Source: Candidatus Saccharimonadales bacterium
GTDB lineage: Bacteria; Patescibacteriota; Saccharimonadia; Saccharimonadales; 2-12-FULL-41-12
Length of the DNA: 64,000 nt
Reading direction: 5' to 3'
NCBI GenBank assembly: GCA_025451045.1
Contig: JANWLD010000003.1
Coordinates: forward strand, 133,690-197,689
In this document: piece after piece, positions 21,825 through 32,987 of the stretch
Layout: the number at the start of each line of letters is the position of its first letter
How positions within the stretch are numbered: position 1 is the first letter of the stretch
Notes under the pieces: generated by a model
The model's input: only the letters and a program-made list of their open reading frames with translations
Database searches by the model: none
What the model was told of the DNA's origin: nothing
Position numbers and translations under genes: made by a program

Positions 21825-21911
21825 GGGCGAGTGGCGGAACTGGCAGACGCGCCGGACTCAAAATCCTGTGTCCTTTTGGACGTGTGGGTTCGACTCCCAC
21901 CTCGCCCACCA
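21825..21911 (+). tRNA. tRNA-Leu (anticodon CAA), long variable arm, CCA encoded
   Basis: Acceptor GGGCGAG/CTCGCCC, anticodon loop CTCAAAA, variable arm TGTCCTTTTGGACGT, T-arm GTGGG-TTCGACT-CCCAC. Confidence 0.9.
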
Positions 21912-30130: not shown

Positions 30131-31981
30131 TTATTTATAATATGAACTTTGGAACATCTTTGTCATGGATCTTTTATGTATTTCTCTTTGGTGGCGCCAT
30201 TCAGCCCTTTTTATAAGGTTAACTGCTTTGATATAGGCGTGGATGGTGGCGTTGTTCAGGCTGGTGCCTTCGCTGTATGCAGTTACGGTCACGCCTTTAT
30301 AAGCCACCTTGACTATAGCTCCTGCTTCAGAATCGGAGCCGCTATGAAGGGCAAAAGGTTTCGCATCTTCAATATCCCCGCTAAAGTCAAGTATCTTACC
30401 GATGGCGATTCTGGCGGCATCTACTTCCCCCTTGTTGCTCGTGGCTTTTTCTGTTCGTCTCTTGCCGTCTATATTTAAAGTTATTTTGGCATAGTCATCA
30501 TTTTCCTTCCCGTGGGATTTTGCGTGCAGTTCACTATCTGTCATTTTTATAGCGTCGTCCTGCCCGTGGAATAACTGTTCAAGCGCGAAGGCCTCGATTT
30601 CTAGATCGGTTATGGGCTGTTTCCTTGTTTTTGAAACGGTGTTGGAGTTGATAACTATTTGTTCTATATCAAGCTTAGCTACATCAAAGGCTAGATCGGT
30701 TAATCTTTTCACGGTTTCTTCCGAATTAATTACCAATTCTGACTTGTAGATGTCCGTACCGCCAAGATTGGCCCGACCAGCTTTACCTTGGTACTTCCCA
30801 TCTTCCAATATAGCCGCGACGGGATGTCCGAAGCCTCGGTTGTCTACAGCGGCGTAGGTCGCGGCCCCTCCTTTATTAATAGCATCCGAATGAACGCCCG
30901 AGCGGTGAACTATAGTATGGAAACCGGTGACGGGGGTATCGGGGTCAAGCTCCAATCCGGCGGCGTCTAATAGGCCTTCTGCTACGGCTTTCAACTTGGT
31001 TGTATCCACCGTAATTACTACGGGCGCGGCAAACTCATCCCGATCGGTCAGAACGTTGCGTACATAAGGCGCTAAATACATATTGCCGTTGCGTTCGCCT
31101 TTGCCGGGAGCGCTGACTGACTCCACTTGAAAGTCCGGTATAGCTGAACTTCTTGCTAACGCGGCGTTTATTACCGCATGCATTGAAGATATGGTGTTTT
31201 GAACGGCTCTCTGGCCATCATCGTGGTTGTGGCTCGATATCGTAATCTCTTCCACCCTGCCTTCGTCAATCATCCAGTTTGTCGCGGCGTCGAATATTTT
31301 GGCCATGCGGATAGGACTGGCAGCTCCTAGAGTGTCGGGCAGGTTAATTACATTTATATCTTCCTGCAGTGCGGTTCTGACTGCTCTTTCTAAGAAGACC
31401 ATATCAGTTGTAGAAGCTGCTTCGCAGGAAAACTCTACCGTACCATCAGGTCCTATTGCATCTCGGGCTCTGCGTATACTGTCCACGCCCATTTCAAGTA
31501 CTTCTTCCCTGGTCATGGCAGGGTGTTTTGCGCGCATGTGTTCTTCGGCGGTGGCGATAAATACATGTATTCCGGGTCTGTCAGCTTCTTCTACGGCTCT
31601 GGCTGCTTGCTCAATTCCTGCCGGATTAGCCAGAGTAAGTCCGGTAATGACAGGCGTCCAGATTTTTGGCGGCAAGTCTACCCAGTTACCATTTTCAATA
31701 GACTTCGGTAATATCTGGTACTGGGTTTGCCCGACTGTTCTGGCTACTTCAGCTATTTCTTCTTCATCGCCCATACTGGCTGGAAAGCCAGCTTCGATTA
31801 CGTCTACTCCCTGGCTTACTATCAACTCCGCCAGCTCGACTTTTGAGCCTTCAGGGAATTGATTCTCCTGAGGCAAAGACTGCGCCCCGTCGCGTAGCGT
31901 AGTGTCGAATATCTCTATTTTCATTGCCGCCGGATCAAATTCCGGTTTAGAAGGCAGTGTTTCTACTTGGCTTTGTATCAT
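30131..31981 (-). CDS. LeuA-family 2-isopropylmalate synthase-like enzyme, 616 aa
   Basis: FDTTLRDGAQS, SSHNHDDG (HxH) and a C-terminal LeuA-dimer-type domain; preceded by a Leu-rich leader. Confidence 0.85.
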   Translation of the reverse strand: MIQSQVETLPSKPEFDPAAMKIEIFDTTLRDGAQSLPQENQFPEGSKVELAELIVSQGVDVIEAGFPASMGDEEEIAEVARTVGQTQYQILPKSIENGNWVDLPPKIWTPVITGLTLANPAGIEQAARAVEEADRPGIHVFIATAEEHMRAKHPAMTREEVLEMGVDSIRRARDAIGPDGTVEFSCEAASTTDMVFLERAVRTALQEDINVINLPDTLGAASPIRMAKIFDAATNWMIDEGRVEEITISSHNHDDGQRAVQNTISSMHAVINAALARSSAIPDFQVESVSAPGKGERNGNMYLAPYVRNVLTDRDEFAAPVVITVDTTKLKAVAEGLLDAAGLELDPDTPVTGFHTIVHRSGVHSDAINKGGAATYAAVDNRGFGHPVAAILEDGKYQGKAGRANLGGTDIYKSELVINSEETVKRLTDLAFDVAKLDIEQIVINSNTVSKTRKQPITDLEIEAFALEQLFHGQDDAIKMTDSELHAKSHGKENDDYAKITLNIDGKRRTEKATSNKGEVDAARIAIGKILDFSGDIEDAKPFALHSGSDSEAGAIVKVAYKGVTVTAYSEGTSLNNATIHAYIKAVNLIKRAEWRHQREIHKRSMTKMFQSSYYK

Positions 31982-31993
31982 TTTTTCTCCATT

Positions 31994-32024
31994 AAATTAA
32001 AAATAGGCTTCTTGGTTGAAGCCT
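31994..32024 (-). terminator. Attenuator terminator (Leu leader)
   Basis: Minus strand: AGGCUUC-AACCAA-GAAGCCU, then AUUUUUAAUUU; SD GGAGA lies ~15 nt downstream. Confidence 0.7.
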
Positions 32025-32063
32025 GATGCTTTGGGCTGTACTGTGGCTCCGATACCCTCGGAA

Positions 32064-32141
32064 CTAGGCTTCAACCATGCTGAAGCACAGCCCTTTAAGG
32101 CTGAGTAGGAGGTCCAAGTGCTTCGCTATGTATGAAACCAT
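32064..32141 (-). CDS. Leu-rich leader peptide MVSYIAKHLDLLLSLKGLCFSMVEA
   Basis: 26-codon ORF; 6 Leu, clustered as LDLLLSLKGL; its last codons GGUUGAAGCCU(AG) are an 11-nt perfect complement of the terminator 5' arm plus loop. Confidence 0.72.
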   Translation of the reverse strand: MVSYIAKHLDLLLSLKGLCFSMVEA

Positions 32142-32150
32142 ATCAAAATA

Positions 32151-32179
32151 ACGATAACCCGCTTTAGGTCTTTTGTCAA
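32151..32179 (-). promoter_or_regulatory. Putative promoter of the Leu leader
   Basis: TTGACA (32174-32179), 17-nt spacer, TATCGT (32151-32156), 9 nt, ATG. Confidence 0.5.
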
Positions 32180-32180
32180 A

Positions 32181-32273
32181 CCCCGTAGTGAGCTTTCGTG
32201 ACTCTCTCGGCCAAGTGGCCGGGAAACTTTAGCCGCCCCTTTGGGCGGCTAAACTCGAAAGTCTACTACAGGG
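32181..32273 (-). mobile_element. Palindromic insertion element, copy A
   Basis: Minus strand reads CCCTGTAGTAGAC...GCTCACTACGGGG, flanked by 5-bp direct repeat TCAAA (32176-32180, 32274-32278). Inner stem TTTCG/CGAAA; the interior carries the hairpin TTTAGCCGCCC-AAAG-GGGCGGCTAAA (32228-32253). Confidence 0.55.
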
Positions 32274-32987
32274 TCAAACCAGTTTGTATTCACCGTCTGA
32301 TTCTTCAAGATGATAAACTTGGCTTTTGCGCTCAATGATTATCGGCCACTTTTTGGCTTTTGCATGTTCAAGCAGGGTTTTGTTAGGGTTGAAGGCTATG
32401 GGTTTCTCAACCAGTTCCAACATTGGTATATCACCCTCGGTATCGCCGACTCCTATGCTTCCTTCCAGCGACAAACCTTTCGCGTCAATAATTTTTTGCA
32501 AGGTCTTGCCCTTCGCCCCTGCCGGGAAGCTGGCATAGCCGCCGAATTTATCGCCAGACTTTTTGTATTTGGTACCGGTCCATTCGTCAAAACCGTAATA
32601 TTTGGAAACTTTTTCAACTATTTCGTACTGCGAGCCGGAAATCGCTATCAGATAGTATCCTTTGTCTTTCAGCTCAGCTACCAAGTCGCGCGTGTAGGTA
32701 TAGACTTGGTCTTTATATTTTGCGAATACTTTGTCGACTGCTTTAGAAAATACGGATATATTCAGCTGGCTTACGTGCTTGTCGAATATCTCAATCGATT
32801 TATTCGCGTAGTTCTCGTAGGCTTTTTCCGAGCTGCGGGCTTTCCAGGAATCAAACAGGTTATGTACTTCCCGGTAATCTTCATTATCTATCAGTCCTTC
32901 GATTGCCAGTTCATAGAAAACGGCCATGAAAAGCTGCCAGCGGATAAGCGTTCCGTCAAAATCAAACACCGCAAACCTTTTGCTCAT
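32274..32987 (-). CDS. HAD-IB family hydrolase (phosphoserine phosphatase-like)
   Basis: FDFDGTL motif I, S/T motif II region, and GVGDTEGDIPML motif IV. Confidence 0.78.
   Translation of the reverse strand: MSKRFAVFDFDGTLIRWQLFMAVFYELAIEGLIDNEDYREVHNLFDSWKARSSEKAYENYANKSIEIFDKHVSQLNISVFSKAVDKVFAKYKDQVYTYTRDLVAELKDKGYYLIAISGSQYEIVEKVSKYYGFDEWTGTKYKKSGDKFGGYASFPAGAKGKTLQKIIDAKGLSLEGSIGVGDTEGDIPMLELVEKPIAFNPNKTLLEHAKAKKWPIIIERKSQVYHLEESDGEYKLV

Follow-up and report, generated by a model that had tools for sequence, protein, structure and literature searches.

The enterobacterial attenuators leuL, trpL and ilvL follow one plan, in which a short open reading frame (ORF) where pathway-cognate codons stand in a row is followed by an antiterminator and a terminator which exclude each other, the stop codon lets a terminating ribosome mask the 5′ arm of the antiterminator, and the intrinsic terminator stands before the first gene. 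Here we analyzed a leader of the same plan, the Leu leader, which precedes a LeuA-like gene in a 64,000-nt stretch of DNA from a Candidatus Saccharimonadales bacterium. This whole stretch is called the window, all positions are given in its numbering, and the Leu leader and its gene are on the minus strand. Unlike leuL, trpL and ilvL, the Saccharibacteria leader has no Shine-Dalgarno sequence, its whole ORF is predicted to form an anti-antiterminator hairpin, its structure includes a further conserved long-range helix besides a variable hairpin, the same scaffold is combined with varied codon runs, and the host belongs to the candidate phyla radiation (CPR). It shows no sequence or covariance-model similarity to them (Rfam Leu_leader).

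In Deinococcus deserti, 14 leaderless leader peptides have been predicted before tRNA synthetase and amino-acid biosynthesis genes (PMC4007540, where the trp mechanism is also summarised), and polycysteine leaderless short ORFs have been described in mycobacteria (bioRxiv 10.1101/834739). Both have a short regulatory ORF which is enriched in one amino acid, as here, and the start site at or next to the start codon, as is predicted for the present leader. The D. deserti targets include aminoacyl-tRNA synthetases together with biosynthetic genes, as is also found here (LeuRS, related loci L071 and L077). In Deinococcus and mycobacteria the start sites were measured, whereas that of the Saccharibacteria leader is deduced from promoter geometry; those ORFs are from other lineages and have unrelated sequences, whereas Saccharibacteria leaders of different specificity share a strongly conserved RNA core. 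In Corynebacterium the ilvB-II motif, a conserved RNA motif before ilvB, is a branched-chain-rich upstream ORF (uORF) acting by attenuation (PMC10272879), and a three-hairpin model has been given for the ilvBNC uORF (PMC11857589). It is likewise an amino-acid-rich uORF attenuator found by comparative genomics, but it is another motif of another phylum and is tied to ilvB, whereas the Saccharibacteria scaffold serves many genes. The T-box riboswitch (RF00230) senses tRNA charging, as the present leader would, and chooses between terminator and antiterminator before amino-acid genes and synthetases, but it senses the uncharged tRNA directly, without translation, and neither the window nor any of 15 related loci contains a match to it.

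The leader and its relatives

It is very likely, from comparison of the sequences, that the Leu leader is a ribosome-mediated leader-peptide transcription attenuator which couples the LeuA-like gene to charged tRNA-Leu. The elements of the leader are as follows.

32179-32174, minus strand: −35 box TTGACA (consensus promoter scan)
32156-32151, minus strand: −10 box TATCGT, with a 17-nt spacer from the −35 box (consensus promoter scan)
32141 (ATG) to 32066-32064 (TAG), minus strand: leader ORF MVSYIAKHLDLLLSLKGLCFSMVEA and stop, 25 codons, no Shine-Dalgarno sequence ahead
32139-32133, minus strand: 5′-proximal arm GGUUUCA, codons 1-3, pairing with UGAAGCC of segment 2 at the base of the ORF-spanning hairpin
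32126-32118, minus strand: 5′ arm of helix a, GCGAAGCAC, with its partner GUGCUUCAGC in segment 1
32117-32115, 32111-32103 and 32099-32097, minus strand: regulatory Leu codons UUG, CUC CUA CUC and CUU
32102-32089, minus strand: inner hairpin AGCCU-UAAA-GGGCU within the ORF
32093-32085, minus strand: 5′ arm of the long-range helix, GGGCUGUGC, codons G-L-C
32086-32079, minus strand: segment 1, GCUUCAGC, i.e. GCUUCA(GC)
32077-32066, minus strand: antiterminator 5′ arm (segment 2), UGGUUGAAGCCU, ending in the U of the UAG stop
32076-32066, minus strand: segment 2 as given in the preliminary description, GGUUGAAGCCU, reaching into the UAG stop
32064-32046, minus strand: variable hairpin GUUCCGA-GGGUA-UCGGAGC
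32041-32033, minus strand: 3′ arm of the long-range helix, GUACAGCCC
32032-32025, minus strand: A-rich spacer AAAGCAUC from the long-range helix to segment 3
32024-32005, minus strand: intrinsic terminator AGGCUUC-AACCAA-GAAGCCU, segments 3:4 (consensus terminator scan)
32024-32013, minus strand: antiterminator 3′ arm, i.e. terminator 5′ arm and loop
32004-31994, minus strand: U-rich tail AUUUUUAAUUU
31990-31987, minus strand: Shine-Dalgarno sequence GGAG of the LeuA-like gene
31981-30131, minus strand: LeuA-like gene, 616 aa, HMGL-like and LeuA_dimer domains (domain search)

From 5′ to 3′ the order is thus promoter, ORF, variable hairpin, GUACAGCCC, A-rich spacer, terminator, AUUUUUAAUUU, GGAG and the gene's ATG at 31981. 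Every sequence element listed in the preliminary description was found where it had been placed; the limits of its range, 31994-32179, coincide with the −35 box on one side and the last base of the U-rich tail on the other, and the strand, which it did not name, is minus. The ATG of the leader ORF begins 9 nt past the −10 box, and transcription is predicted to start at about 32144-32143, 2-3 nt ahead of the AUG. The ORF has 6 Leu per 11 codons, including CUC-CUA-CUC. Among 811 short ORFs of the window five have LLL and at least 6 Leu per 11 residues, and of these only the one at 32141-32064 sits between promoter-like and terminator-like sites just 5′ of a LeuA-like gene. The fold of the 219-nt leader has z = −3.96, and none of 200 shuffles folded as well.

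The decisive evidence is the conservation of the element. A homologous leader was present directly 5′ of the gene in all 18 distinct relatives fetched by protein alone (9 Saccharibacteria/Patescibacteria genomes and 9 further distinct loci), and because the element is conserved in these protein-found relatives a chance arrangement is untenable. The independent set used below consists of 19 leaders which were found via the protein and not via the leader sequence. A scan of metagenomes with a DNA pattern gave at least 120 stretches, of which at least about 100 are true leaders that carry this ORF in frame. The pattern was made from the conserved core and fixes GGCTGTGCTT, TGAAGC and RYACAG; the metagenome set is biased for those bases, and their conservation was judged from the 19 protein-found leaders alone. 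On the sequence comparison the Leu leader is one of a previously undescribed family of at least 100 members in Saccharibacteria, the kind of regulator itself being classical.

No Rfam 15 family, the T-box included, matched the leader at the gathering threshold in the window or in the 15 related loci. With E up to 10, the region 31850-32400 gave eight weak sub-threshold matches (for example SAM-SAH with 13.1 bits against a gathering score of 40), none of them to a Leu-leader family or a T-box; Rfam recognised only tRNAs and the L10 leader, the latter separate and before rplJ. Read by eye, CUC in the long hairpin could pass for the specifier of a T-box Stem I; this reading was rejected because the codon lies in the 5′ strand of that stem, the T-box sequence is missing and the ORF shows conservation. 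A covariance-model search of the window found no second copy of the Leu-leader scaffold, and no description of the element was found in the literature on Saccharibacteria/Patescibacteria attenuation, leader peptides, isopropylmalate synthase and T-box.

Sensor codons and predicted translation

Elements, conservation, covariation and the match between codon class and gene were all computed. The frame of the ORF was tested over the 15 codons upstream of the conserved core, which lie outside the bases fixed by the search pattern, and it is free of stops in 94 of 94 unique leaders, the other two frames being so in 15 and 43. Codons −10 to −2 across the family are 37% Leu, 14% Ile and 4% Val (55% together), and their class changes with the gene downstream. 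The genes behind the scaffold are LeuA-like, IlvA, IlvB, RidA, LeuRS, M20 peptidase and a small ORF of unknown function. Leaders before LeuA-like genes have a Leu-type run in 20 of 20 cases, those before IlvA have Ile runs (IIICH, RIIIPGI, SIIIIPDI, RIIMSPII), those before IlvB have mixed Ile/Val/Leu runs (IVVISIL, VIIIVL, IAVIVL), and those before the LeuRS genes of L071 and L077 have Leu-rich runs. The ratio of Leu-type to other runs is 20:0 for LeuA-like genes and 1:9 for IlvA, IlvB and RidA-IlvA (Fisher p = 7e-7, with shared ancestry uncorrected). These counts support the earlier proposal that the Leu-rich ORF is the sensor: the element is, as judged from its sequence, probably a translated sensor and more than an RNA structure. 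A fixed aptamer would not account for a scaffold in which the sole gene-specific part is the amino-acid identity of the codon run.

Most members of the family have a TTGACA-like box 16-18 nt 5′ of a TAnnnT box, and in 59 of the 62 leaders with a clear promoter the start codon follows the end of the −10 box by 6-10 nt. A Shine-Dalgarno-like 4-mer is found at 3 of 62 leader starts, against 88 of 94 regulated genes, where it follows the terminator. For most members this geometry predicts a 5′ end only 0-4 nt ahead of the start codon, an arrangement in which leaderless initiation would be possible. The leader ORF is probably translated from a leaderless mRNA, since the start codon comes 6-10 nt after the −10 box and the Shine-Dalgarno sequence is absent.

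Secondary structure and covariation

In the window segments 2 and 3 pair perfectly over 11 bp (12 bp with a U:A pair), segments 1 and 2 over 6 bp, extensible to 8, and segments 3 and 4 over 7 bp. Complementary motifs recur along the leader, the GCUUC type in the 5′ codons, segment 1 and segment 3 and the GAAGC type in helix a, segment 2 and segment 4. In the in-silico fold the ORF-spanning hairpin holds segments 1 and 2 and has the Leu codons in its 5′ half. The UAG stop overlaps the last base of segment 2, a geometry which suits masking by a terminating ribosome.

In the independent leaders the antiterminator 2:3 shows 91% pairing and four compensatory pairs, and the long-range helix has 96.5-99.4% of cells paired with one compensatory pair (C-G in 15, U-A in 4, and a U.G intermediate in L133). 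For these two helices jointly, none of 500 shuffles reached the observed covariation and slid controls were at most 42% paired. The antiterminator duplex, of 10-17 bp and −20 kcal/mol on average, is present in 101 of 101 leaders; the terminator stem covaries (93 leaders) and has 7-11 bp in nearly all members, and in the variable hairpin 5 of the 5 counted pairs change on both sides in the family. The consensus of RNAalifold, reached independently, consists of the long-range helix and the terminator. In the inner hairpin 97.9% of alignment cells are paired, and IlvA-type leaders have, by eye, CCC(G) in place of its 5′ arm, pairing with the same GGG. A synonymous change of CUG to UUG (Leu) is matched by G to A in the partner strand, which indicates a constraint at the RNA level beyond coding. 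The earlier claim that the 2:3 antiterminator and the 3:4 terminator are mutually exclusive agrees with these results, as both helices exist and show compensatory changes and the 5′ arm of 2:3 ends at the stop codon.

When the leaders were folded one by one and compared with shuffled 5′ halves, segment 2 paired with the 5′ codons in the minimum-energy fold of 18 of the 19 independent leaders, the ORF hairpin had a mean z of −2.57, and segment 1 paired with an upstream GAAGCA-like stretch of the 5′ half in 89% of them. A 1:2 hairpin had been proposed as well, and its pairing is possible over 6-8 bp with 94% of cells compatible, yet this is no better than in shuffles and no covariation supports it; the pairing that is conserved for both segments is with the ORF's 5′ half. 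The core of the "complete four-segment" scheme stands, but the scheme leaves out the ORF-spanning hairpin, the long-range helix, the covarying variable hairpin at 32064-32046 and the probably leaderless start.

RNAalifold also gave an outer helix AGCCU:AGGCU (32102-32098 with 32024-32020) which would extend the long-range helix; it was rejected, being 96% compatible but varying by wobble only. The leader has three copies of AGCCU (one arm of the inner hairpin, segment 2 and segment 4), and the outer helix probably stems from this recurrence. If true, it would be a nested antiterminator usable only with a ribosome stalled further upstream.

Proposed mechanism

The following course of events is proposed for the attenuator. 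With no ribosome on the leader the ORF would fold on itself, the 5′ codons with segment 2 and GCGAAGCAC with segment 1, so that segment 3 is free for segment 4 and the terminator would form, giving the OFF state at the U-run. In leucine-replete cells translation would be fast and the ribosome at UAG would mask segment 2, again with the terminator and the OFF state as the outcome. In leucine-starved cells the ribosome would stall at the Leu codons and thus occupy the 5′ half of the ORF hairpin, which would then be unable to form and would leave its 3′ half free; the freed segment 2 would form with segment 3 the 12-bp antiterminator, and RNA polymerase would read through into the gene. Stalling and the direction of regulation are what we infer from the arrangement of the elements.

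The preliminary description placed the Leu cluster just 5′ of segment 1, which is true of its position. A ribosome stalled with its A site on CUC-CUA-CUC (32111-32103) would, at the last codon of the run, shield the RNA no further than about 32093, which leaves segment 1 at 32086-32079 exposed. The effect of the stall would therefore be to remove the 5′ partner of segments 1 and 2 rather than to cover segment 1.

In the same course the freed GGGCUGUGC would pair with GUACAGCCC downstream, and the long-range helix so formed would draw the first bases of segment 1 off segment 2 and may coexist with the antiterminator as a pseudoknot. The linkers would leave room for such a pseudoknot: the one on the 5′ side is 3-10 nt, mostly 6-7, and the one on the 3′ side, the spacer from the long-range helix to segment 3, is mostly 7-9 nt with a range of 0-18 and 55% A (101 leaders). 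We lean slightly towards the long-range helix promoting readthrough. Two findings favour this role: in 42 of 93 leaders most of segment 2 stays free of pairing in the helix domain, and the conserved 9-10 bp of the helix overlap and compete with the 1:2 hairpin.

More tentatively, and as a proposal we hold to be somewhat less likely than not to prove right in all its parts, the leaders of Saccharibacteria and related Patescibacteria may be one modular leaderless scaffold of six mutually complementary segments and a pseudoknotting long-range helix. It would be retargeted to Leu, Ile or Ile-Val by a swap of the codon run. In these reduced genomes the enzymes of a partial branched-chain pathway would come under its control, along with LeuRS and a family of uncharacterised small proteins.

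Alternative explanations

Several results weigh against the attenuator as proposed above. Just 19 leaders are independent of the leader sequence, and the pattern-selected metagenome set cannot show conservation of the fixed bases. The covariation of the long-range helix is one pair in one lineage. Pair counts from the MAFFT alignment are no better than shuffles for the 5′ helices (68.7% paired); such counting fails because the register of the helices shifts between sequences, and for these helices the folding of single sequences was used instead. The LeuA-like protein scores 221 bits against the NCBIfam LeuA cutoff of 532, and the regulated protein is most likely a divergent isopropylmalate-synthase-like one, as far as its sequence tells. 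A pseudoknot-free equilibrium model with the ribosome as a mask favours the terminator for an A site within the LLL run (mean probability 0.94-0.95) and gives partial antitermination of about 0.5 only for A sites 1-6 codons past it; in this model the long-range helix with the terminator beats the antiterminator. We do not read this as a sign of inverted logic, since in the model the long-range helix and the antiterminator necessarily exclude each other. If their coexistence is impossible, the helix would lock the OFF state and the stalling logic would need revision.

This last case is the strongest of the alternatives, and we consider it unlikely, though by no means negligible. The attenuator would be the same, but a three-way junction of the long-range helix GGGCUGUGC:GUACAGCCC, the 1:2 hairpin and the variable hairpin would sequester segment 2, and readthrough would occur only with a ribosome over GGG or segment 1 (A site at about 32102-32087). 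In the window this junction with the terminator has −41.9 kcal/mol, against −27.1 for the antiterminator with the variable hairpin. Constrained folds and partition functions, in the window and as the average of 93 leaders, give the terminator for stalls at LLL and the antiterminator for stalls 1-6 codons later, and the RNAalifold consensus combines the helix with the terminator. These calculations come from folding programs which cannot represent pseudoknots and hence are biased towards such a lock. Moreover, stalls at the first regulatory codons (LLL, or the Ile/Val codons further upstream in IlvB-type leaders) would then terminate transcription, which is the opposite of a sensor's role. The 42 of 93 leaders in which the helix domain leaves segment 2 largely unpaired speak against sequestration, as do the lack of covariation in the 1:2 hairpin and the competition of the extra conserved pairs of the helix (9-10 bp) with that hairpin. 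What probability remains goes to a long-range helix which does something other than aid readthrough or lock the OFF state.

The conserved C-terminal motif GLCFxxVEA could also mean that the short ORF encodes a functional hydrophobic micro-protein (...GLCF..VEA) and that the terminator is an ordinary one at the end of a gene. We regard this as improbable: third codon positions of the motif are invariant while first-position changes that alter the amino acid (Gly to Arg) are tolerated, the synonymous change of CUG to UUG has a compensating change in its partner strand, the N-terminal half lacks conservation at the protein level, and in 101 of 101 leaders the end of the ORF and the terminator 5′ arm are complementary. 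The peptide may also have a role in trans beside attenuation.

If the ORF were incidental, the conserved RNA could be a riboswitch which binds a ligand or tRNA (a leucine aptamer or a T-box-like element) or else a leader bound by a protein. This would suit the multi-helix architecture and the very high nucleotide conservation, third codon positions included (GGGCUGUGCUUC, UGAAGC), but is hardly credible given a frame open in 94 of 94 leaders, a start codon always placed shortly after the −10 box, a codon run whose amino-acid identity alone changes with the downstream gene, and no T-box, Leu leader or riboswitch aptamer at the Rfam gathering threshold in the window and the 15 related loci.

Variant leaders and downstream genes

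In L037, L041 and L063 the ORF, the long-range helix and the 2:3 complementarity are kept, and the 3′ arm of the terminator and the U-run are absent; these may be decaying copies or copies which act otherwise. The divergent relative L140 is without a clear terminator and is uninformative.

A protein search for relatives of the LeuA-like protein led exclusively to metagenome-assembled genomes of Candidatus Saccharibacteria or Patescibacteria (37-53% identity), and a large protein collection has about 100 homologues in size classes of about 390 and about 590 aa. The long form (about 585-616 aa) has the allosteric LeuA_dimer domain and the short form (about 387-407 aa) is without it; Leu-type leaders precede both length classes.

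The first ORF after the leader is often a small protein of 57-130 aa (L011, L026, L035, L037, L046, L049, L067, L078, L082, L094, L120, L123, L131 and others). In L131 the leader precedes an extra 81-aa ORF (1243-1488), which lies between the leader and the LeuA-like gene. The small proteins have a common motif (V/I)(S/P)Y(A/S)G(E/T)E, with ...ANLPA as a frequent C-terminus; no Pfam match was obtained for three representatives of this family.

The leader with its cargo (LeuA-like, IlvB, RidA, IlvA, M20 peptidase or small ORF) is recurrently placed 5′ of rplJ-rplL, an unknown 170-aa gene and dnaX (rplJ-upstream placement in L005, L012, L022, L027, L030, L046, L050, L052, L057, L082, L098, L107, L120, L129 and others). 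In the five rplJ-containing loci scanned rplJ retains its own Rfam L10 leader, and it is therefore not the target of the amino-acid leader.

Candidate neighbouring leaders in the window

The same gene cluster has two further candidate leaderless leaders. One is in the 165-nt gap before a second LeuA-like paralog (30123-29983, minus strand; fold z = −5.19) and is called the Ile leader, and its scaffold is unlike that of the Leu leader. The other (26446-26280, minus strand) precedes a DAHP synthase gene (26260-25082) and is called the aromatic leader.

30123-30118 and 30100-30095, minus strand: Ile leader promoter, TTGACA, 17 nt, TACAAT, then 8 nt to the ORF
30086-30033, minus strand: Ile leader ORF MSKQIIDTIIIIPEARG and stop, 6 Ile of 17
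30005-29988, minus strand: Ile leader terminator CUCCCGC-GAAA-GCGGGAG with U-run, 7-bp GC-rich stem, 10 bp in the predicted fold
29965-28379, minus strand: LeuA-like paralog 2, 528 aa
26410, minus strand: GTG start of the aromatic leader, 7 nt after the promoter TTGCAT-17-TATAGT
From 26410, minus strand: aromatic leader ORF VKTYLKQYWFSTYFMPLSADSAQFAF and stop, YWF-rich, 8 aromatic of 26 residues
26306-26285, minus strand: aromatic leader terminator, 9 bp, with U-run

The sequence of the Ile leader suggests that paralog 2 is controlled by Ile. Before its own DAHP synthase gene, L001 has a leader homologous to the aromatic one, VKKHMSQYWFTPF..., with the same QYWF core. The presence of three amino-acid-specific leaders in one gene cluster strengthens the attenuator interpretation.

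A perfect GC-rich hairpin, UUUAGCCGCCC-AAAG-GGGCGGCUAAA, with U/A-run flanks lies at 32252-32226 on both strands, between a HAD-hydrolase gene (32987-32274) and the promoter of the Leu leader, and is probably the terminator of the upstream gene. The window also has a tRNA-Leu(CAA) gene (21825-21911, plus strand), which reads UUG, the first Leu codon of the leader; CUC and CUA of the LLL run need other tRNA-Leu species, which are outside this window.

Significance

The Leu-leader family is absent from Rfam 15 and is currently missed by genome annotation. Its leaders give a functional handle on divergent genes which are otherwise unannotatable; the placing of paralog 1 behind a Leu leader and of paralog 2 behind an Ile leader, for example, suggests distinct roles of the two in the pathway. 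At least 100 natural variants of one scaffold, differing only in the sensor codons, form a series in which the retargeting of attenuators can be studied. Saccharibacteria are very small bacteria which are usually described as amino-acid auxotrophs, and the present analysis indicates that their branched-chain-related genes are still regulated in response to amino acids, through the oldest known RNA mechanism.

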